Position numbers and translations under genes: made by a program. Source: a virus (taxonomy: Duplodnaviria; Heunggongvirae; Uroviricota; Caudoviricetes). From it: a stretch of DNA of 42,486 bases. The notes under the pieces were generated by a model. That model was not told where the DNA came from. It made no database searches and worked only from the letters and a program-made list of their open reading frames with translations. The number at the start of each line of letters is the position of its first letter. The first letter of the stretch is position 1. Positions 5,818 to 42,486 of this stretch are shown here, one piece after another. Location of the stretch: IMG/VR virus record IMGVR_UViG_2541047683_000004, positions 1 through 42,486 of that record; one strand, given 5' to 3'.

Positions 5818-5920
5818 GTTAAATCTCCAGATAGTCGCAGCACCCGTTGCGCCGCATATCTGGTTATTCTATTACCTGAAAAACCATATATGGATAGAAA
5901 GGCTGTAAATACGAATAGAT

Positions 5921-5937
5921 ATTACCTTTCAGGTAAT
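5921..5937. promoter_or_regulatory. Operator-like palindrome ATTACC-N5-GGTAAT (copy 1)
   Basis: Perfect 17-bp palindrome attacctttcaggtaat in intergenic DNA between tailspike start and LexA-box gene. Confidence 0.6.
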
Positions 5938-5975
5938 TTGCAAAACGTGCTGGATAGCAAACAAATTATTTGCTA

Positions 5976-5991
5976 CTGTATAAATATACAG
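5976..5991 (+). promoter_or_regulatory. LexA (SOS) box CTGT-N8-ACAG
   Basis: tactgtataaatatacagtt matches LexA consensus taCTGTatatatataCAGta; 22 bp upstream of ATG 6014. Confidence 0.7.
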
Positions 5992-6013
5992 TTATTGCAT
6001 GGAGAAGATTAAG

Positions 6014-6271
6014 ATGCAGCAGTATCACTATCCACTGGAAGACGGATTTACCGAAAGGATTCACACGCCGGGAGGCGTCAGGTCACTGGTGGAGGGATCG
6101 CACTTGATGAAATTACTCCGGGATCTCGATAAGGATGGATTTAATGTCGATGGCCCACTTGCCGAACTGACTGCACTGATTAACTACGTCACCAGCTCAC
6201 AGATGTCTATGCGGGATCTGCAAACACATCTCGACTATTGTGCCGAACAATTACGAAAACAAACCCGGTAA
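6014..6271 (+). CDS. Small SOS-controlled antirepressor-like protein (stand-alone copy of the shared C-terminal module)
   Basis: 85 aa; GGAGAAG RBS; aligns to the C-terminal 70 aa of the two larger antirepressor-like proteins (LM.LL..L..DG..V.G..AELT ... RD.QTH..Y). Confidence 0.6.
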   Translation: MQQYHYPLEDGFTERIHTPGGVRSLVEGSHLMKLLRDLDKDGFNVDGPLAELTALINYVTSSQMSMRDLQTHLDYCAEQLRKQTR

Positions 6272-6293
6272 ATTTAAAGGCCGCAAGAGCGGC

Positions 6294-7022
6294 CTATCGT
6301 TTCGCTTTGTGCTCGTCCCAGCACGTTTTGCACCATGCCATTAAGCCGTCCGCATTTTGATTATTAGGGTAAAAGCTGGTCCGTTTTCTGCGGACATTAC
6401 AAATTGGGCACCACTTCATATGGCGTGTATTCTTTGGGCCATCGAGACACCTTGCACACCACTTAGTCAATCCATCTGGATTTTTTGACGATTTCCGGAA
6501 TTTGTCATATGGAAGGTTTATTCTGCATCGCAAACACTGCTTGCGGCCACTTGAAACTCTGTTAGCTGATTCTTCTTTTGACGGCGATACAGAAGGTATT
6601 CTTGCTGGCTCTGATACTGCCTGAGGTGCTTTTTTAGATGACTGAGACGATATGTCATCACCAGGGAATCTTCCATGATATGCCGGACGCGTTGACACTC
6701 CAGGTGGAAGCTCAGCTGTAAACGGCTTTGGCTGAATCAGTTGCCTCTCTTTTGCTAACTCCTGCTGTTTATAATATGTCTGGATTACCGCACTATCATA
6801 AGCAGGAGGTGCGGAAATATTAGGCGCATTACCTCCAGTTTTTTGAAACTGAGTAGAGGTGTGTTCTATCACCTGTGTACGATTAATCGTTATCTCCCCA
6901 TCTTCGGTCTTTATCGTTTTGTTATGATTAACGACCGTACGATCAGAGATCTTAGTCTTGTTCTGGTTGATAACGTAAATAATCACCGTAACCACACCAA
7001 CAACTATCCAGAAAACTTCCAT
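6294..7022 (-). CDS. Membrane-anchored protein with C-terminal double zinc-ribbon (2 x CxxC...WCxxC)
   Basis: N-terminal TM MEVFWIVVGVVTVIIYV, Pro/Ser-rich linker, two Cys4 units; GAGGAAAA RBS; 5-prime cassette identical to gene 10832. Confidence 0.6.
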   Translation of the reverse strand: MEVFWIVVGVVTVIIYVINQNKTKISDRTVVNHNKTIKTEDGEITINRTQVIEHTSTQFQKTGGNAPNISAPPAYDSAVIQTYYKQQELAKERQLIQPKPFTAELPPGVSTRPAYHGRFPGDDISSQSSKKAPQAVSEPARIPSVSPSKEESANRVSSGRKQCLRCRINLPYDKFRKSSKNPDGLTKWCARCLDGPKNTRHMKWCPICNVRRKRTSFYPNNQNADGLMAWCKTCWDEHKAKR

Positions 7023-7041
7023 TGCTTTTCCTCACAATAAC

Positions 7042-7058
7042 ATTACCTTAAAGGTAAT
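7042..7058. promoter_or_regulatory. Operator-like palindrome (copy 2)
   Basis: attaccttaaaggtaat, 14 nt upstream of RBS of gene 6294-7022. Confidence 0.6.
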
Positions 7059-7134
7059 ATCTTGCTTTCAGGTGATCAAGCATTAAACGCAACCAACCAA
7101 ATACGGTTGATTTTAATATTTCTTCGCGTTTATC

Positions 7135-7151
7135 ATTACCTTTGCGGTAAA
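7135..7151. promoter_or_regulatory. Operator-like palindrome (copy 3) abutting putative -35 TTTACA of leader promoter
   Basis: attacctttgcggtaaa; followed by TTTACA-N17-CATAGT. Confidence 0.55.
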
Positions 7152-7186
7152 TTTACATCGCACTCCTCTTGTGCCATAGTAATCGG

Positions 7187-7262
7187 GCACTGGCAAAATC
7201 CAGTGCCGGGATTGGCGTCCCGGATTACTAAAAGGCGCATTCACCGCGCAAGCGGTTTTTTT
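7187..7262 (+). ncRNA. Candidate small structured RNA (two hairpins plus intrinsic terminator) in antirepressor leader A; c4-like riboregulator candidate
   Basis: Hairpins gcactgg/ccagtgc and ccggg/cccgg, terminator accgc-gcaa-gcggt-T7; conserved with compensatory changes in inverted copy at 10096-10174. Confidence 0.4.
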
Positions 7263-7419
7263 ATGCGTATAGCACGGCCACATTCGTATTATGGTGGGCT
7301 GTGTGGGGGCACCGAAAGGTGCGCCGGGTCCTTTTAGCCGGTTACGCCAACCCTGCACAGTTCACCACCAACCGATTGGCGTCGGTAGTGGTGATTAACC
7401 AGACTAAAAGGTAACCACT

Positions 7420-8115
7420 ATGACAGCTACAAAAAGCACGTCCATTTTTTCTTTCGAATCCCAAGCCGATATACGGGTAATCGTCATTAATGGTGAGCCA
7501 TGGTTTATCGCTTCAGATGTTTGTCGGGCTATAGGCATAGCAAACCATCGAGATGCTGTTCGAAAACTTGATGATGATGAGAAGGGCGTCGCTTCAACCG
7601 ACACCCCTGGCGGTGAGCAAGAATCGATCATCATCTCCGAGTCAGGCCTCTACACACTGATCCTCCGCTGCCGCGACGCAGTGACACCAGGCACTATCCC
7701 CTACCGCTTTCGCAAATGGGTTACAGGTGAGGTTCTTCCTCAGATCCGCCGCACCGGAAGTTACATTAAAAACTCGCTCCCGCAGGAAGAACGCATAAAG
7801 ATGGTTGCCGACCAGGTAGCCAACGCCACGGCGTCAGCAGTAATGCAGGCGATGAAGATAGAGAACAAAACCTACAGCGCCCCGCTGAAGCCCGGCTACC
7901 GCAGTCTGATTCATTCGCCGTCTGGTGTTCTCGGCCTGACGGAGAACTCATTGCTGATGAATCTGCTGAATCAGTTGCAGGACGACGGGCATGATGTATC
8001 GGGCGCGGCGGCGGAACTGACCACCATGTTCTGCTACATCGTCGGTGTGAGCAAATGCCTGCGTGATATCCAGACCCACGCGGAGTACATCAACGACAAG
8101 GCAGGGTTCTTCTGA
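7420..8115 (+). CDS. Antirepressor-like protein, Bro-N type N-terminal domain plus shared C-terminal module
   Basis: N-terminal SIFSFESQADIRVIVINGEPWFIASDVCRAIGI resembles Bro-N; C-terminal 80 aa nearly identical to gene 9289-9939. Confidence 0.65.
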   Translation: MTATKSTSIFSFESQADIRVIVINGEPWFIASDVCRAIGIANHRDAVRKLDDDEKGVASTDTPGGEQESIIISESGLYTLILRCRDAVTPGTIPYRFRKWVTGEVLPQIRRTGSYIKNSLPQEERIKMVADQVANATASAVMQAMKIENKTYSAPLKPGYRSLIHSPSGVLGLTENSLLMNLLNQLQDDGHDVSGAAAELTTMFCYIVGVSKCLRDIQTHAEYINDKAGFF

Positions 8116-8159
8116 CGGGCGGTGGCACAGGGATGTGCCTTTAAATAATTCTGTACAGA

Positions 8160-8188
8160 TTGCAGACTGTGGGTGAATAGCGTACTAT
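8160..8188 (+). promoter_or_regulatory. Sigma70-like promoter TTGCAG-N17-TACTAT for cassette 8263-9216
   Basis: Hexamers with 17-bp spacer; operator palindrome overlaps -10 and start site. Confidence 0.5.
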
Positions 8189-8203
8189 TACCTCAAGGGT
8201 AAA
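8187..8203. promoter_or_regulatory. Operator-like palindrome (copy 4)
   Basis: attacctcaagggtaaa overlapping -10/+1 of cassette promoter. Confidence 0.55.
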
Positions 8204-8262
8204 CGGATTGGTTTCATTTTTATTAATCCGTGTAATGAACTTATGAGATATGAGGTAATGTC

Positions 8263-8442
8263 ATGCGAAACGAAAAATTGCAGATGCGTAGAGCGCAAGC
8301 TGCCGCAAGACGTTCTTTCAATGGAAGCGTAGAGTACGTAAAAGTTACTATGACAAAAGATCACGCAAGTCGCGTATCCCGCGCTTTCTTTGATTCTCGT
8401 AACAATAAGGAAAATTATGAGTTCGTCTGCGTCGCAGAATGA
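8263..8442 (+). CDS. Small basic protein (59 aa), candidate antitoxin or regulator
   Basis: GAGGT RBS 6 nt upstream of ATG; overlaps start of downstream gene by 26 nt; not in supplied ORF track because under 60 aa. Confidence 0.4.
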   Translation: MRNEKLQMRRAQAAARRSFNGSVEYVKVTMTKDHASRVSRAFFDSRNNKENYEFVCVAE

Positions 8443-8962
8443 TAAAAATCAAATTGTCAGATATAAGGGTCGAGTGTTGCATACGCAAAATTTCTCGGCC
8501 CTTTGTGCATCTGATCTTGAGCTGAAGAAAGTATCTGATGCCTTTACCCAGTATTGGAAAACGGGATACCATCCATCTCTTGGTAAAGATGCTGCATTTG
8601 CTCGTCCGACAGAAATGCTTAAACTAAATGTCAGGCATACTCATGTCGATAACCAAGACTATATTCCAGAAGATAGTGATAAAAAACACACTGGTAAAAA
8701 ATCATCTTGGGATGCATGGAAAAATATAGCGTCTGTACAAGTAAAATGCATACCAACAAGTGATTGCTTTTTAGTTTATTCGGTAAATCACAATCGTGAT
8801 GCGCTGGTTATGTTTTTTGTTGACGCAGATGCTCACAACATAACTGAGCAAGAAGAGTTTAAAGAGGAAGCAATCACTATCAGTTATCAATTCTTTGAGA
8901 AAACAAAAACAGAACCAATGCCTTTAGAAGAAGATCTTTTTTCTGATAAATGGAAGGAATAG
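8417..8962 (+). CDS. AT-rich accessory protein, possible YafO-like toxin (tentative)
   Basis: AAGGAAA RBS; motif pattern F..Y...G..P..GKD, RHTHV, FLVYS, DADAH resembles recalled YafO-family pattern; visibly AT-rich versus flanks. Confidence 0.4.
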   Translation: MSSSASQNDKNQIVRYKGRVLHTQNFSALCASDLELKKVSDAFTQYWKTGYHPSLGKDAAFARPTEMLKLNVRHTHVDNQDYIPEDSDKKHTGKKSSWDAWKNIASVQVKCIPTSDCFLVYSVNHNRDALVMFFVDADAHNITEQEEFKEEAITISYQFFEKTKTEPMPLEEDLFSDKWKE

Positions 8963-8982
8963 CCCGCAGCGCGGGCTTTTTT
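8963..8982 (+). terminator. Rho-independent terminator
   Basis: cccgc-agc-gcggg followed by T6. Confidence 0.6.
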
Positions 8983-9054
8983 GTGGACGAAACAAAAGTC
9001 AGTGCTACACTCATTGACGCCACATTGAGGTGGCTTATAGATGGAAATTTCACA

Positions 9055-9216
9055 ATGAAAAAAGCATTTGCTGCACTGTTCGTTTTATTGTCTCTGGTAG
9101 CTTCAACTCAGGCCTTTGCCGGTCGTTGTCAGCACGACAGCGATACTGCTGCTGACGGCTCCCGCTGCGGTGGGCGTTCTGCGGATTCCCGTCCGGGCGG
9201 CGGTGGCATTCGTTAA
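9055..9216 (+). CDS. Small secreted Gly/Arg-rich peptide (53 aa) with signal peptide
   Basis: MKKAFAALFVLLSLVASTQAFA signal then 31-aa Cys-containing tail; weak RBS. Confidence 0.35.
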   Translation: MKKAFAALFVLLSLVASTQAFAGRCQHDSDTAADGSRCGGRSADSRPGGGGIR

Positions 9217-9239
9217 AAACAAGGCCGCGAAAGCGGCCT
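9214..9239 (-). terminator. Intrinsic terminator for antirepressor gene B
   Basis: aggccgc-gaaa-gcggcct hairpin followed on minus strand by T-run. Confidence 0.55.
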
Positions 9240-9251
9240 GTGACATGTCAC
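9240..9251. repeat. Perfect 12-bp palindrome GTGACATGTCAC (copy 1 of 3)
   Basis: Exact palindrome between convergent genes. Confidence 0.6.
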
Positions 9252-9288
9252 GATAGTTTCGTTTTGCACATCCCTGTGCCGCCGCCCG

Positions 9289-9939
9289 TCAGAAGAACCC
9301 TGCCTTGTCGTTGATGTACTCCGCGTGGGTCTGGATATCACGCAGGCATTTACTCACACCGACGATGTAGCAGAACATGGTGGTCAGCTCCGCCGCCGCG
9401 CCCGATACATCGTGCCCGTCTTCCTGTAACTGGTTCAGCAGATTCATCAGCAGTGAGTTTTCCGTCAGGCCGAGAACACCAGACGGAGAATGAATCAGAC
9501 TGCGGTAGCCGGGCTTCAATGGGGCACTGTATTCTTTTTTGTCTTCCAGCTTGATCGCCTCCATAATGGCGGGCATGAAGCCTGACAAGACCTTCTCCAC
9601 TTTTGTTTCTTGTTGTCTTAAACGTTTCTCGCATTCAATGAAGTAGCGTCGTACCTGACGACCTTTTTCGTTACGCTCGACCATCGCCAGCTCTTTGGCT
9701 GTATCGAGGGTTAGGTGGTAGTCTTTTGCAGGACGGCCTCTGCCTATTTTTTCCCGAACTTGGGAAATAATCATAAAGTCTTGATTTTCAACGAAGCCAT
9801 ATTCAGCAATTCGTTCGACAATCCACGAAGCAAATCGCTTACCCACATCGAGGAAAGTGTGTAAATCACGGGCATTAACGAGAAGAGCGGTTTCGTTGGA
9901 TATAGTGCCGTTGAATACGGGGATGAGTTGAGCGTTCAT
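9289..9939 (-). CDS. Antirepressor-like protein, AntA/Rha-type N-terminal domain plus shared C-terminal module
   Basis: N-terminal LIPVFNGTISNETALLVNARDLHTFLDVGKRFASWIVERIAEYGFVENQDF resembles AntA-type domain; C-terminal 80 aa matches gene 7420-8115; GGAG RBS. Confidence 0.65.
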   Translation of the reverse strand: MNAQLIPVFNGTISNETALLVNARDLHTFLDVGKRFASWIVERIAEYGFVENQDFMIISQVREKIGRGRPAKDYHLTLDTAKELAMVERNEKGRQVRRYFIECEKRLRQQETKVEKVLSGFMPAIMEAIKLEDKKEYSAPLKPGYRSLIHSPSGVLGLTENSLLMNLLNQLQEDGHDVSGAAAELTTMFCYIVGVSKCLRDIQTHAEYINDKAGFF

Positions 9940-10095
9940 GATGGCGTCTCCACTTAGCGAATTACATCACCACCGCTGAGACCAATCAGATGGTGGTGAA
10001 CTGAACGGAGTTGGTCTTACCGGCCTAAGTGGTACCGGCGTCCTTTCGGACCCCCATTCAGCCCACCATAATTCTGGCATGACTGTGCTATACGC

Positions 10096-10174
10096 ATAAA
10101 AAAACCACGTCTGGCGTGGTATGCGCCACTTAGTAATCCGGGAGACCAATCCCGGCACTGGATTTTGCCAGTGC
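10096..10174 (-). ncRNA. Candidate small structured RNA in antirepressor leader B (inverted paralog of 7187-7262)
   Basis: Same hairpin-hairpin-terminator architecture; terminator stem differs in sequence but preserves pairing (ccacg-ccaga-cgtgg). Confidence 0.4.
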
Positions 10175-10209
10175 CTGATTACTATGGCACAAGAGGAATG
10201 CGATGTAAA

Positions 10210-10226
10210 TTTACCGCAAAGGTAAT
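10210..10226. promoter_or_regulatory. Operator-like palindrome (copy 5)
   Basis: tttaccgcaaaggtaat, inverted counterpart of copy 3. Confidence 0.55.
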
Positions 10227-10372
10227 GATAGACACAGACAAACATTAAAATCAACCATATTTGGTTAATGCGTGTAAAAGAGCCAGCAGCGAGAAATTGT
10301 GCCGCGACGTAAAATAACGAGCATCTGCTGGCTTACAACCAGCGATGTTTCAAATTTGTCACTACTATCAAC

Positions 10373-10771
10373 GTGCCATTCCACGGCGCAGAGCTTTATG
10401 TTGTCAATCACAACGGCGAACCGTATACCCCAATGAAACCTATCGTTGAGGGAATGGGGCTAGACTGGAAATCTCAACATAAGAAGATTTCTCAACGCTT
10501 CTCGAAGGGTATGGTGGAAATCACCATACCTTCTGCCGGTGGGGTGCAAGCCATGATTTGTATGGCTTTACGAAAATTGGCAGCTTGGTTGAACAGCATC
10601 AGCCCTAACAAAGTCCGCCCTGAAATCCGCGACAAGGTAATCCAGTATCAGGAAGAGTGTGACGATGTGCTCTACGAGTACTGGACTAAAGGCCATGTGG
10701 TTAACCCACGCAAAGCTAAAAAGGCGTTGCCGGGTAAAATCACTACTGAGCAACAGGAGGTATACACTTAA
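10373..10771 (+). CDS. Antirepressor N-terminal-domain-like protein, start codon unclear (possibly truncated remnant)
   Basis: Segment LYVVNHNGEPYTPMKPIVEGMGLDWKSQ resembles P22-antirepressor-type N-domain by recollection; only GTG or internal ATG starts, no good RBS. Confidence 0.35.
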   Translation: MPFHGAELYVVNHNGEPYTPMKPIVEGMGLDWKSQHKKISQRFSKGMVEITIPSAGGVQAMICMALRKLAAWLNSISPNKVRPEIRDKVIQYQEECDDVLYEYWTKGHVVNPRKAKKALPGKITTEQQEVYT

Positions 10772-10795
10772 CACTTGATCACATTAGCACAAAAC

Positions 10796-10812
10796 ATTAC
10801 CTTTAAGGTAAT
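10796..10812. promoter_or_regulatory. Operator-like palindrome (copy 6)
   Basis: attacctttaaggtaat 14 nt upstream of RBS of gene 10832; part of 49-bp block identical to that at 7020-7060. Confidence 0.6.
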
Positions 10813-10831
10813 GTTATTGTGAGGAAAAGCA

Positions 10832-11359
10832 ATGGAAGTTTTCTTAATCATCGTCGGCATCGTGATTATTAATTTTGTTTTTTTATTTATTGCAAAAAAA
10901 CAAAAAAGTAACGATATGCATGTTTCTACAACTGATGATCTTACCTTTGTAGAGCATGCACTGAATGTATCAGGATATAAACTCACCCCATACGGAGCTG
11001 GTGTATCACTCATGTCTTTAAGTAACGGTTTTTCAAAAGAAGAAACATTTTCACATATAGCTTTGATGGCTCTTTCTCAACACGCCAAAGTCGCAGGTAG
11101 TGACGCAATTGAGCTTAGTAAAGTTAGCATTCGTGCGATGTCGATAGCTGAAAACTTAACTAAATTATTCAGGAAAGGTCTTATTCGATCAGAAATATAT
11201 AAAAATGATTTGAATGCTATCATGGCTGTCAGCACAATTAATGAAAACCAAGAGGATTGGATTTCCATAGTTCTGGAAAGCAATAGCACATCTAACAAGG
11301 ATACTATTGCTTTGCCGATAAGTGCAGAAGCTTCTTTAGAAGCCATAAACAGCCATTGA
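10832..11359 (+). CDS. AT-rich membrane-anchored accessory protein (moron), function unknown
   Basis: N-terminal TM MEVFLIIVGIVIINFVFLFIA then soluble domain; visibly low GC; shares promoter-operator-RBS-TM cassette with gene 6294-7022. Confidence 0.55.
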   Translation: MEVFLIIVGIVIINFVFLFIAKKQKSNDMHVSTTDDLTFVEHALNVSGYKLTPYGAGVSLMSLSNGFSKEETFSHIALMALSQHAKVAGSDAIELSKVSIRAMSIAENLTKLFRKGLIRSEIYKNDLNAIMAVSTINENQEDWISIVLESNSTSNKDTIALPISAEASLEAINSH

Positions 11360-11380
11360 AAGAACTCCAATAAATATTGA

Positions 11381-28890: not shown

Positions 28891-29483
28891 TGATTACCAT
28901 CCTGACGTTCTTTGAGTCGCTTCCTGGCTGCCGCTATGCGATCAGCAATTGTCACATTCACATTAACATCCAGGCGTTCTTTGAACGCGTTGACGTCGAC
29001 GTGCTTACCAATCAGTTCGAGGTTCTTCACCTTGTCAGGCCATTTAATTTTTTTGAGGATTGTCTCTATCGAATCCTCGTTCATGTTCATGATGGTCGAT
29101 GACAGATCAAAGCCACTAAGCGTAGTGCGCCAGATTTTCGGCCACTCGCGGATTGGCTTAAGGCTCCCATCGTCGTTGAGGATGTCGATCACGTCCATCT
29201 GGTCGATCTCCACCAGGCGCATGAGAACGTAATCAGCACTGACGCGCATTCGTTTGTTGCGCTCCTCCATCAACTCGGCAATCCGTTTTTGAATGCGTTC
29301 ATCGCGCATCATGACACTGGCTTTAACTGCCGCTGTATTTGGGGAGAATCCTGCGTTAATCGCTGCCTGAGTCTGGTTTTCAGGCGTTTTGATGTATGAC
29401 TGGCAATAAGCCTCCTGCATTGCTGTGAGCGGCTTAAATTGCGTTGATTTGCGTTTATAGGTTTTAGGTTCAGCAGGCATCAT
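28887..29483 (-). CDS. Terminase small subunit
   Basis: Start moved to internal ATG 29483; helix-turn-helix-like N-terminus; overlaps large subunit start. Confidence 0.6.
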   Translation of the reverse strand: MMPAEPKTYKRKSTQFKPLTAMQEAYCQSYIKTPENQTQAAINAGFSPNTAAVKASVMMRDERIQKRIAELMEERNKRMRVSADYVLMRLVEIDQMDVIDILNDDGSLKPIREWPKIWRTTLSGFDLSSTIMNMNEDSIETILKKIKWPDKVKNLELIGKHVDVNAFKERLDVNVNVTIADRIAAARKRLKERQDGNQ

Positions 29484-33852: not shown

Positions 33853-33869
33853 TTTACCTCTAAGGTAAT
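33853..33869. promoter_or_regulatory. Operator-like palindrome (copy 8)
   Basis: tttacctctaaggtaat. Confidence 0.55.
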
Positions 33870-33914: not shown

Positions 33915-33931
33915 GTTACCTGATAGGTAAT
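33915..33931. promoter_or_regulatory. Operator-like palindrome (copy 9)
   Basis: gttacctgataggtaat; with copy 8 brackets a candidate internal promoter. Confidence 0.55.
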
Positions 33932-36201: not shown

Positions 36202-36218
36202 TTTACCTGTTGGGTAAT
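36202..36218. promoter_or_regulatory. Operator-like palindrome (copy 10) in immunity region
   Basis: tttacctgttgggtaat; nearby inverse arrangement GGTAAC...GTTACC at 36165-36190. Confidence 0.55.
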
Positions 36219-36272: not shown

Positions 36273-36857
36273 ATGAAAAGTATCCAGGACGTCCGCAGGC
36301 AAAATCTCAACGACTTGATCGACCGTGAATTCAATGGTGTTCAGACGCGGATGGCAGAAAAACTTGGAACTCAGGCAAATCTGGTAAACCGCTGGGCTCT
36401 TGGCAAGAAGGTTATCGGCGACCAGGTTGCGCGAAAAATTGAAGCTGCCGCCAATAAACCCCGTAACTGGCTTGATATCGATCGCTCGCTTTCTCAGGAA
36501 GGTTTTCAGCCTGTCGGCCCAAGCGACATTGGTCAGCTGGCAGCTCACAACCTGGAACGCTGGATGAGCGAAAGCCGCGACCTTTCAACACAGGGAAAAC
36601 TTCACCGCGCATCCGGCGTAGCCCAGGTGACAATCAGCCGCCTGTTAAACAATGAGGTCAGCGTTTCCATTTCCACCCTGGAGAATGTTGCATCCGCATT
36701 CGGGCGTCACGGCTATGAATTACTGATTCACCCGCACGACCCTGCGACCATCAACTATGATCGCTCGCGCTACGCATTGTTACCCGAAACCGAGAAAGCA
36801 AAGATCGAAAGTTACATTGAATTTGTCATCAACCAGAACGAAAAAAACAAACAATAA
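36273..36857 (+). CDS. Phage repressor candidate with two tandem XRE-type HTH domains
   Basis: Two helix-turn-helix-like segments (residues about 20-45 and 105-130); monocistronic between operator clusters; terminator downstream. Confidence 0.6.
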   Translation: MKSIQDVRRQNLNDLIDREFNGVQTRMAEKLGTQANLVNRWALGKKVIGDQVARKIEAAANKPRNWLDIDRSLSQEGFQPVGPSDIGQLAAHNLERWMSESRDLSTQGKLHRASGVAQVTISRLLNNEVSVSISTLENVASAFGRHGYELLIHPHDPATINYDRSRYALLPETEKAKIESYIEFVINQNEKNKQ

Positions 36858-36913: not shown

Positions 36914-36930
36914 ATTACCTAACGGGTAAT
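36914..36930. promoter_or_regulatory. Operator-like palindrome (copy 11)
   Basis: attacctaacgggtaat upstream of -35. Confidence 0.6.
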
Positions 36931-36948: not shown

Positions 36949-36977
36949 TTGACATCAAACCATATACGCATAATTAT
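36949..36977 (+). promoter_or_regulatory. Early promoter TTGACA-N16-TAATTA
   Basis: Consensus -35 with near-consensus -10, flanked by two operator palindromes. Confidence 0.55.
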
Positions 36978-36992
36978 TACCTAAACGGTAAC
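36976..36992. promoter_or_regulatory. Operator-like palindrome (copy 12) overlapping -10/+1
   Basis: attacctaaacggtaac. Confidence 0.6.
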
Positions 36993-41229: not shown

Positions 41230-42486
41230 TTATTTATTACTGTCTTCCATCCACTTCTCAAACTTCGACGGGGAGAACGGAATCAGATCCGTATGCTCCC
41301 CGTTAATCCAGGAATCAATCATATCGGCCCACTGCTGCAACATGTAGGCGCGCTGTCTGGCGTATTCCGCTTTGTTATATACGGCGCGCACACCTTTCTG
41401 CTCATGTGCCAGAGCCTTTTCAATCCAGTCTGAAGGATAACCAGCCTCATGCAACAACGTACTGGCTGTACGGCGCATATCATGTACAGTGAAGTCCTGA
41501 ATATACTCACCATCTTCATTTATTATTTTCACCGTTCTGTCGATCAGAGAGTTCAGTGCGGCATTAGATAATGGCTTCCGGAAATTGTAACGACCAGGAA
41601 CCAGATATTCACTTCCACCAGCACACATCTGCAACCCGACCAATATATCCTGTGCCTGTTTAGGCAGGTAAATAACGTGTGCCCGGCTTCCCTTCATGCG
41701 GTCTGAAGGAATTGTCCATGTCCATTTTTTAAAATCTATTTCATCCCACGTTGCATTGGTGAATTCGCCTTTACGAACCATAGTGATAAGCACCAGCTTT
41801 AAAGCCATTTTCATAGTGCCCATAGCACCAATGGCATCCAACGTGCGGAAGAACAGGCCAATTTCTTCTGGTGTCAGTGTTCGCTCTCGTGGTTTAAATA
41901 TGGCGATAGACGAAGGCTTAATGTCAGCCGCAGGATTAAACAAACCATGACCACGGTCATTGGCGTGACGGTATACGCTGCTGATGATCTCCCTGGCCTG
42001 CACTGCTGTTGCCCGGCCACCGCGTTCGACAATCCGGTCACACAAATCACGAACCATCGATGTGGTAATTTCAGCCATCATTTTGTTGCCAAGAACCGGA
42101 AGTATGTCACGGTCGATCACTGCCTGCTTCATTGCGCGGGTACTTTCAGCCAGGATGACGTGTTTCATATAACTGTCGGTATGTACCGCAAACGTTTCGG
42201 CACCACGAATCTTTTTGATACCGTCACGTTTAGCCGCAGCCGGTGACTGGCCTGCTTTAAGCAGCTTCTTTGCAGCAATCAGTTCTTCCCGCGCTTCTGC
42301 CAGGCTGATACCGTCACGCCCATACTGCCCGATTACCAGTGTTTCGCGGCGACCGTTGATACGGTAGTCATAACGAAATGAGACCGTGCCTGACGTAAGC
42401 ACAGCTACATACAGCCCGTCACGATCGGAGACCTTGTACAGTTTGTCCTGCGGCTTGAGGTTTTTTAATTTTGTATCGGTAAGCAC
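41230..42486 (-). CDS. Tyrosine integrase, P4-like; N-terminus cut by window edge
   Basis: N-terminal LTDTKLKNLKP...YKVSDRDGLYVAV pattern; C-terminal HDMRRTASTLLHEAG...Y catalytic region. Confidence 0.85.
   Translation of the reverse strand: MLTDTKLKNLKPQDKLYKVSDRDGLYVAVLTSGTVSFRYDYRINGRRETLVIGQYGRDGISLAEAREELIAAKKLLKAGQSPAAAKRDGIKKIRGAETFAVHTDSYMKHVILAESTRAMKQAVIDRDILPVLGNKMMAEITTSMVRDLCDRIVERGGRATAVQAREIISSVYRHANDRGHGLFNPAADIKPSSIAIFKPRERTLTPEEIGLFFRTLDAIGAMGTMKMALKLVLITMVRKGEFTNATWDEIDFKKWTWTIPSDRMKGSRAHVIYLPKQAQDILVGLQMCAGGSEYLVPGRYNFRKPLSNAALNSLIDRTVKIINEDGEYIQDFTVHDMRRTASTLLHEAGYPSDWIEKALAHEQKGVRAVYNKAEYARQRAYMLQQWADMIDSWINGEHTDLIPFSPSKFEKWMEDSNK

Follow-up and report, generated by a model that had tools for sequence, protein, structure and literature searches.

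Antirepression by the Ant/Rep pair of the Salmonella phage SPC32H is an already known system (Kim & Ryu, J Virol 2013; Kim et al., PNAS 2016; PDB 5D50, 5D4Z). According to a passage in PMC9638917, SPC32H Ant binds Rep and disassembles the Rep tetramer (PDB 5D50), and a statement in PMC7380047, citing Kim & Ryu 2013, gives the order of events as LexA self-cleavage, Ant synthesis and inhibition of the repressor. The antirepressors of Gifsy-1, Gifsy-3 and Fels-2 are likewise repressed by LexA and serve to induce prophages whose repressors are non-cleavable (Lemire et al. 2011, PMC3121763), and they can act in trans on other prophages (PMC3121763). These prophages differ in lineage (lambdoid and P2-like) and are likened to the locus described here by logic only. 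SPC32H Ant is said by Kim & Ryu to be structurally distinct from the Gifsy/Fels-2 antirepressors. In coliphage 186, the SOS operon promoter p95 is LexA-boxed and serves the small antirepressor Tum, which faces a non-cleavable repressor; the annotated -10 of p95 is the TACTGT of its own LexA box, and the box lies 18 nt before the tum start.

The window, by which we mean the whole stretch of 42,486 bp analysed here, is a phiV10/epsilon15-like prophage of E. coli (genus Uetakevirus). Its tailspike-ant region is 94-99% identical to those of phiV10, ZX5, phiv142-3 and TL-2011b and about 77% identical to those of the Salmonella relatives. The window starts in host lipoprotein-like genes (1-1071) and ends with a P4-type integrase (41230-42486). 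An attachment site at the 3' end of guaA has been reported for phiV10, epsilon15 and ZX5 (PMC9782041), and the window ends are consistent with such a site.

We consider it very likely that the ant locus of this prophage is the SOS-sensing arm of the phiV10/epsilon15-like (Uetakevirus) lysis/lysogeny switch, orthologous to SPC32H Ant/Rep. Observed here are a LexA box that is unique in the window and conserved, the orthology of both Ant and Rep to the crystallised pair, and a repressor with no Peptidase_S24 domain. At the sequence level, the locus shows the Ant homology, the LexA box, the Rep homology without S24 and the synteny of the SPC32H type. The two phages agree in a full-length orthologous Ant, in the two-domain layout of Rep, in a LexA box 19-20 nt before the ant ATG, in the divergence of ant from the tailspike gene within a Uetakevirus genome, and in an operator-like motif, ATTACC-N5-GGTAAT, that in SPC32H flanks rep and precedes ant. 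They differ in host (Salmonella for SPC32H, E. coli for the window) and in Rep, which is strongly diverged. Moreover, the Ant module has two fusion paralogs in the window, both under C4/isrK antisense control, that are missing from this region of SPC32H.

The putative operator of the ant promoter is the LexA (SOS) box at 5974-5993, TACTGTATAAATATACAGTT, an exact CTGT-N8-ACAG with a spacer composed entirely of A and T. No other 20-mer of the 42,486-bp window comes within three mismatches of the SOS-box consensus TACTGTATATATATACAGTA, from which the box departs at two positions; in 100 dinucleotide-preserving shuffles, no sequence came that close. A position weight matrix (PWM), trained on 21 E. 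coli SOS boxes from the literature, gave the box 26.2 bits, which places it in the top three against the training sites themselves. The next-best site in the window reached 12.8 bits, less than the median (13.2 bits) of the maxima from 200 shuffles, of which the highest was 20.6 bits. The heterology index (HI) of the box is 1.54; functional LexA sites are those with an HI below about 12.6, as Lewis et al. reportedly put it in 1994. All features of an E. coli SOS box (CTGT-N8-ACAG, A/T-rich spacer, low HI) are present. An earlier note on this DNA had described a perfect LexA box with an AT-rich spacer upstream of the gene at 6014 and had proposed the PWM scan of the window; the exact match and the scan (26.2 versus 12.8 bits for the runner-up) confirm the description. 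The distance of 22 bp to ATG 6014 given there holds when counted from ACAG, but the 20-mer itself ends 20 nt before that ATG. CTGT-N8-ACAG also occurs at 22403 and 26945, but we take these two sites for chance matches and not for LexA boxes because their spacers are G+C-rich and their PWM ranks low (9.4 bits for 26943-26962; the 22403 site falls outside the 12 best-scoring sites). The box at 5974-5993 is the only credible LexA box within the 42.5-kb window.

The box and its position are conserved among relatives. We aligned the intergenic regions of eight phages (the window, phiV10, TL-2011b, SPC32H, SPC32N, epsilon15, Klebsiella BUCT711 and Enterobacter BUCT554). The TGT-N8-A-AG of the box, a GGAG and the ATG are invariant in this alignment, and the CTGT and ACAG cores are intact except in BUCT711 (ATGT) and in the mutant SPC32N (AAAG). 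At 12 Uetakevirus loci, with Ant identities of 59-100%, the best LexA site of the upstream 200 bp is in each case located 18-20 nt ahead of the ant ATG. In every phage examined, both the Ant gene and the box are conserved.

SPC32H and SPC32N differ at two positions in the 6.2 kb that we fetched. One is a C to A change in the ACAG of the box, equivalent to C5989 of the window, which raises the HI from 2.9 to 6.6. The other is a G to A change (locus plus strand) at locus position 2784, within the opening codons of the tailspike gene and 187 nt away from the mutation in the box. These two nucleotides are reportedly the only differences between the whole genomes of the two phages, and Kim & Ryu are said to have traced the lytic phenotype of SPC32N, in 2013, to constitutive Ant expression from the mutated LexA site. 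In the Klebsiella Uetakeviruses (BUCT711 and two further loci), the site some 18 nt upstream of the ant ATG reads ATATGTATATATATACAGTA, where ATGT replaces CTGT. Its HI of 6.64 is essentially equal to that of the SPC32N mutant box (6.61), and in these phages ant may be under leaky control by LexA.

The gene behind the box, ant (6014-6271, plus strand), encodes an 85-aa stand-alone antirepressor, the ortholog of SPC32H Ant. Residues 2-84 align with residues 3-85 of chain E of PDB 5D50, 'Anti-repressor protein', at E=1.4e-46, and tblastn identity to the ant gene of SPC32H (KC911856) and SPC32N is 86.7%, with 74 of 86 aligned positions identical to SPC32H Ant. GenBank KC911856 labels the SPC32H genes ant ('anti-repressor protein') and rep, and the SPC32N gene is likewise labelled ant. 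Ant also gives a full-length match (7e-48) to phrog_450, a family of 88 positions with 'unknown function'. The only Pfam hit of Ant was a sub-threshold one to DUF724 (17 bits against a cut-off of 38.4), a search of NCBIfam with the 85-aa protein gave no match, and no Pfam or NCBIfam model covers the Ant module.

ATG 6014 is supported as the start codon by homology, since it aligns with the start of SPC32H Ant, of the 86-aa PDB chain and of the 258-bp coding sequences annotated in phiV10, TL-2011b and ZX5. It is preceded at a distance of 9 nt by the Shine-Dalgarno sequence GGAGA (6001-6005), of which GGAG (6001-6004) is the invariant part of the eight-phage alignment. An in-frame ATG at 5999 was rejected as the start: it has no Shine-Dalgarno sequence, and the orthologs and the PDB chain begin at the equivalent of 6014. 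ATG 5999 falls inside the conserved CATGGAG that supplies the Shine-Dalgarno sequence of ATG 6014.

The gene is small and labelled 'hypothetical protein', and nothing more than this speaks for the idea of a palindrome that arose by chance in A+T-rich intergenic DNA, ahead of a non-functional remnant. To this idea we assign a practically negligible probability. The box scores far above all shuffles and its position is conserved across genera; tblastn with Ant found 35 phage records at 59-100% identity, and the gene is present in about 10% of complete E. coli genomes; finally, an ortholog of Ant has a crystal structure. The chance reading is thus effectively refuted already.

Upstream of the gene, we place a putative ant promoter at 5951-5979, with -35 TGGATA (5951-5956), a 17-nt spacer and -10 TACTGT (5974-5979), so that the -10 would coincide with the left end of the LexA box. 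A strict consensus scan for sigma-70 promoters called nothing at the LexA box, and the placement therefore follows the example of 186 p95 together with sequence conservation: the eight aligned phages all share CTGGA, and seven of them (E. coli, Salmonella and Enterobacter) share CTGGATAG. Another possible pair is -35 TAGCAA (5955-5960) and -10 TATAAA (5979-5984) with an 18-nt spacer. Under either placement of the -10, the LexA box would overlap the core ant promoter. Downstream of ant, a G+C-rich hairpin at 6278-6295, AGGCCGC-AAGA-GCGGCCT, with 7 pairs of which 6 are G-C, lies between ant and the convergent open reading frame at 6294-7022 and is likely a bidirectional terminator; a rho-independent terminator is annotated at the equivalent place in epsilon15, after gp19. 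The convergent frame (minus strand) encodes 242 aa, with an N-terminal hydrophobic segment, a Cys-rich C-terminus and a weak Stc1-domain match (21.6 bits, below the cut-off); at the equivalent place, TL-2011b has only a 'similar to hypothetical protein' feature.

The geometry resembles that of 186 p95, in that the box start forms the -10 (in the window, of a putative promoter) and the start codon follows at 18-20 nt. The two loci share a LexA box, a small antirepressor and a non-cleavable repressor, and they differ in that the 186 repressor belongs to another family and 186 is a P2-like myovirus, as opposed to a podovirus. A single pairwise BLASTP of Ant (85 aa) against Tum (146 aa) detected no homology (16.9 bits, E=0.056). 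Therefore, the likeness to 186 Tum and Gifsy-type prophages drawn in the earlier note stands for the regulatory logic and falls for sequence homology to Tum: the locus works like Tum without being a member of the Tum family. As a separate observation, the ant box of epsilon15 is identical at 20 of 20 positions to the p95 (tum) box of 186 at 29044-29063 (TACTGTATGTTTATACAGTA). The two boxes lie 19 and 18 nt from their start codons, respectively, and their flanks and the encoded proteins are unrelated. This identity reflects either convergence on an optimal overlap of operator and -10 or an exchange of operators.

The ant gene is transcribed divergently from the tailspike gene (start 5817, minus strand), with the same synteny in SPC32H and epsilon15. 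The box sits in the 196-bp divergent intergenic region between them, and its orientation is uninformative because the site is palindromic; hence it might be argued that the box chiefly controls the tailspike-lysis operon and not ant. However, 20 nt separate the end of the box from the ant ATG, and 157 nt lie between the box and the tailspike ATG. Moreover, a separate Rep-type operator at 5921-5937 lies between the box and the tailspike gene, and its epsilon15 equivalent is annotated as a repressor site. The box mutation of SPC32N was reportedly attributed to de-repression of ant by Kim & Ryu in 2013. Control chiefly of the tailspike-lysis operon is accordingly very improbable in our view, and we retain ant as the target of the box.

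The presumed target of Ant is the prophage repressor Rep, a protein of 194 aa encoded at 36273-36857 on the plus strand and identified by PDB 5D50 chain A, Pfam HTH_3 and its phage orthologs. Residues 1-190 match chain A of PDB 5D50, 'Repressor', at E=4e-42. Rep is 100% identical to the repressors of phiV10 and ZX5 and 42% identical to SPC32H Rep (53% in the N-domain and 38% in the C-domain). Pfam finds only HTH domains (HTH_3) and no Peptidase_S24 in Rep, and a Pfam scan of 21 other proteins of the accessory and early regions found no Peptidase_S24 either. This agrees with the earlier proposal of a repressor that lacks a LexA-like autocleavage domain. Judged from its sequence, the window thus appears to hold both partners of the crystallised Ant-Rep pair, in the genomic arrangement of SPC32H.

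A family of 17-bp palindromes, ATTACC-N5-GGTAAT, probably represents the Rep operator. At up to three mismatches, 17 sites occur in the window against 1.6 expected, and they cluster around rep, on either side of it, and ahead of each antirepressor-like gene. Sites lie at 5921-5937, 7042-7058, 7135-7151, 8187-8203, 10210-10226 and 10796-10812, and also at 26415-26431, 33853-33869, 33915-33931, 36202-36218, 36914-36930 and 36976-36992. If these are Rep operators, DNA specificity would be conserved despite the 42% identity of the two Reps. The site in the tailspike/ant intergenic region (5921-5937) is a perfect palindrome, ATTACCTTTCAGGTAAT, 13 nt upstream of the putative -35, and the homologous site of epsilon15 is annotated 'protein_bind: repressor, lysogeny', beside an IHF site. 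By eye, we saw no convincing hexamers of a minus-strand tailspike promoter relative to this site. The putative operator may modulate ant too or only the divergent tailspike-lysis operon.

Conservation relative to the SPC32H counterparts is asymmetric, with 86% identity for Ant and 42% for Rep. The two identities do not track each other across phages: they are 78% and 75% in Enterobacter BUCT554 and 83-87% and 42% in the Salmonella phages. Such a pattern points to mosaic exchange and to a tolerance of Ant for diverged Reps. Because Rep is 42% and Ant 86% identical to the SPC32H proteins, recognition of Rep by Ant in the E. coli phage is an assumption; if Ant (86%) recognises Rep (42%), this would imply broad specificity or cross-talk.

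Besides the stand-alone gene, the window contains two fusion genes that carry the Ant module at the C-terminus. The first (7420-8115, plus strand) encodes a 231-aa protein with a Pfam Bro-N domain at residues 17-107 and follows isrK/C4 sequences at 7187-7372; the second (9289-9939, minus strand) encodes a 216-aa protein with a Pfam AntA domain at residues 21-90 and has isrK/C4 at 9989-10174 (minus strand). Over 74 aa, residues 2-75 of Ant are 43% identical both to the last 75 or so residues of the Bro-N fusion (E=3e-16) and to those of the AntA fusion (E=7e-17). The C-terminal halves of the two fusions are 74% identical to each other, the C-terminal 279 nt of their genes are 94% identical, and phrog_450 matches both C-termini as well. 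The alignments to both fusions and the phrog_450 pattern bear out the suggestion that the small antirepressor consists of the shared C-terminal module only.

The segments 7062-8138 (plus strand) and 9266-10266 (minus strand) constitute an inverted duplication of an immI-like cassette. In both copies, a promoter-like site is followed by isrK, the C4 antisense RNA and the antirepressor fusion gene. Rfam scores for isrK (77.9 and 67.7 bits) and C4 (77.7 and 61.2 bits) are all above the gathering scores, and the c4-a1b1 target matches are weaker (45.1 and 38.4 bits, below the gathering score of 46.7). The likeness to immI of P1/P7 (c4 antisense RNA, icd, ant) and to the IsrK leaders of Salmonella is confined to these two paralogs. 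The stand-alone ant has no leader of the P1 immI type and is LexA-boxed instead; an Rfam scan of its upstream region (5818-6013) gave no match and hence no C4/isrK leader. Operator-like palindromes at 7042 and 7135 precede the Bro-N gene and one at 10210 precedes the AntA gene. Another one, at 10796, is perfect and lies on the far side of the adjacent open reading frame (10373-10771, plus strand), just downstream of it. The frame encodes 132 aa that correspond to the P22_AR_N domain alone (E=9e-45), without the rest of a P22-type Ant and without the SPC32H-type module, and represents a third, truncated antirepressor-like gene. Relative to phiV10, a region of about 5 kb (6294-11380) between ant and the virion genes is an accessory insertion. 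Between the two cassettes lies a 190-aa open reading frame (8390-8962, plus strand) with a Pfam match to the YafO toxin (26.1 bits, gathering score 25), which may be a toxin-antitoxin or abortive-infection moron.

The fusions raise the question of which gene induces the prophage. The Bro-N fusion is 99% identical to ORF4 of ZX5, annotated 'anti-repressor'; when ORF4 was overexpressed, lysogen counts fell from 10^9 to 10^6 and repressor mRNA dropped by 75% (PMC9782041). The authors took ORF4 as the antirepressor and mentioned neither the small gene nor SPC32H (PMC9782041). The Rep of ZX5 is identical to that of the window and its Ant is 98.8% identical; thus, the ORF4 overexpression supports by experiment an antirepressor role of the Ant module towards this Rep. 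The same data could mean that the larger Bro-N and AntA fusions are the real inducers, with the small Ant redundant or secondary and the LexA-boxed gene contributing little. However, the PWM scan of the window found no LexA box near either fusion gene, so that the stand-alone ant is the only predicted SOS input in the window. Both fusions lie behind isrK/C4 leaders, with putative Rep operators in the Bro-N leader and, in mirror position, at the AntA gene; these leaders and operators would keep the fusions off in the lysogen, without direct SOS input. Moreover, the Salmonella phages SPC32H and epsilon15 lack the fusions and yet possess the LexA-ant unit, and the small ant with its box is kept in every phage that we examined. 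We therefore judge the fusions unlikely to be the real inducers, and we favour the LexA-boxed ant as the inducing gene.

A two-tier circuit built on one Rep-binding module is possible, and we put it forward tentatively. Here, the LexA-gated Ant would act as the SOS trigger, and the fusions, kept off by putative Rep operators and C4/isrK antisense RNAs, would be released as Rep falls and provide positive feedback, or their targets would lie in trans, in heteroimmune Uetakevirus prophages or superinfecting phages. If such a circuit exists, the difference in conservation between Ant (86%) and Rep (42%) would mark a broad-specificity module that crosses immunity groups.

Our preferred model, in which the stand-alone ant senses SOS, runs as follows. 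In the lysogen, host LexA would occupy 5974-5993 and, with the box overlapping the ant promoter, keep ant silent; lysogeny would be maintained by Rep, a two-domain HTH repressor predicted to be unable to cleave itself, presumably bound at ATTACC-N5-GGTAAT. Upon DNA damage, activated RecA would promote LexA self-cleavage and ant would be transcribed, with a leader of about 27 nt that includes the GGAG. The 85-aa Ant would then bind Rep and split the DNA-binding Rep tetramer, and the lytic genes would be derepressed. LexA binding, the SOS inducibility of ant and Ant-Rep binding are carried over to the E. coli phage from the work on SPC32H. The free-phage titre of ZX5 rises from 10^7 to 10^9 PFU/mL with mitomycin C (PMC9782041), and we found no experiments on the small E. 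coli ant gene in the literature searched. Indirect induction through an SOS-derepressed antirepressor, which the earlier note had thought probable, gains support from the repressor without S24, the ortholog of a crystallised antirepressor behind the box and the shared module.

The locus is common and poorly labelled. Of 5,426 complete E. coli genomes, 531 carry it, and the product is called 'hypothetical protein' in every E. coli RefSeq record among those listed. The ant genes of phiV10, TL-2011b and ZX5 bear the same label, the phiV10 counterpart PhiV10p24 being a 'hypothetical protein, similar to epsilon15p19'. Stand-alone homologs of 85-86 aa occur in Salmonella, Citrobacter, Klebsiella, Enterobacter, Yersinia and other Enterobacterales, and UniRef uses the name 'Anti-repressor protein' for only some of them.

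The mechanism is textbook-level for this phage group, and the value of the finding lies in annotation. Transfer of the SPC32H annotation would give a common E. coli prophage family a named SOS input; the O-antigen-modifying phiV10 of O157:H7 belongs to this family. The published switch model of ZX5, which considered the Bro-N fusion only (PMC9782041), would be corrected as well. The prediction that follows is that SOS-inducing antibiotics would induce these prophages via a single 20-bp operator.
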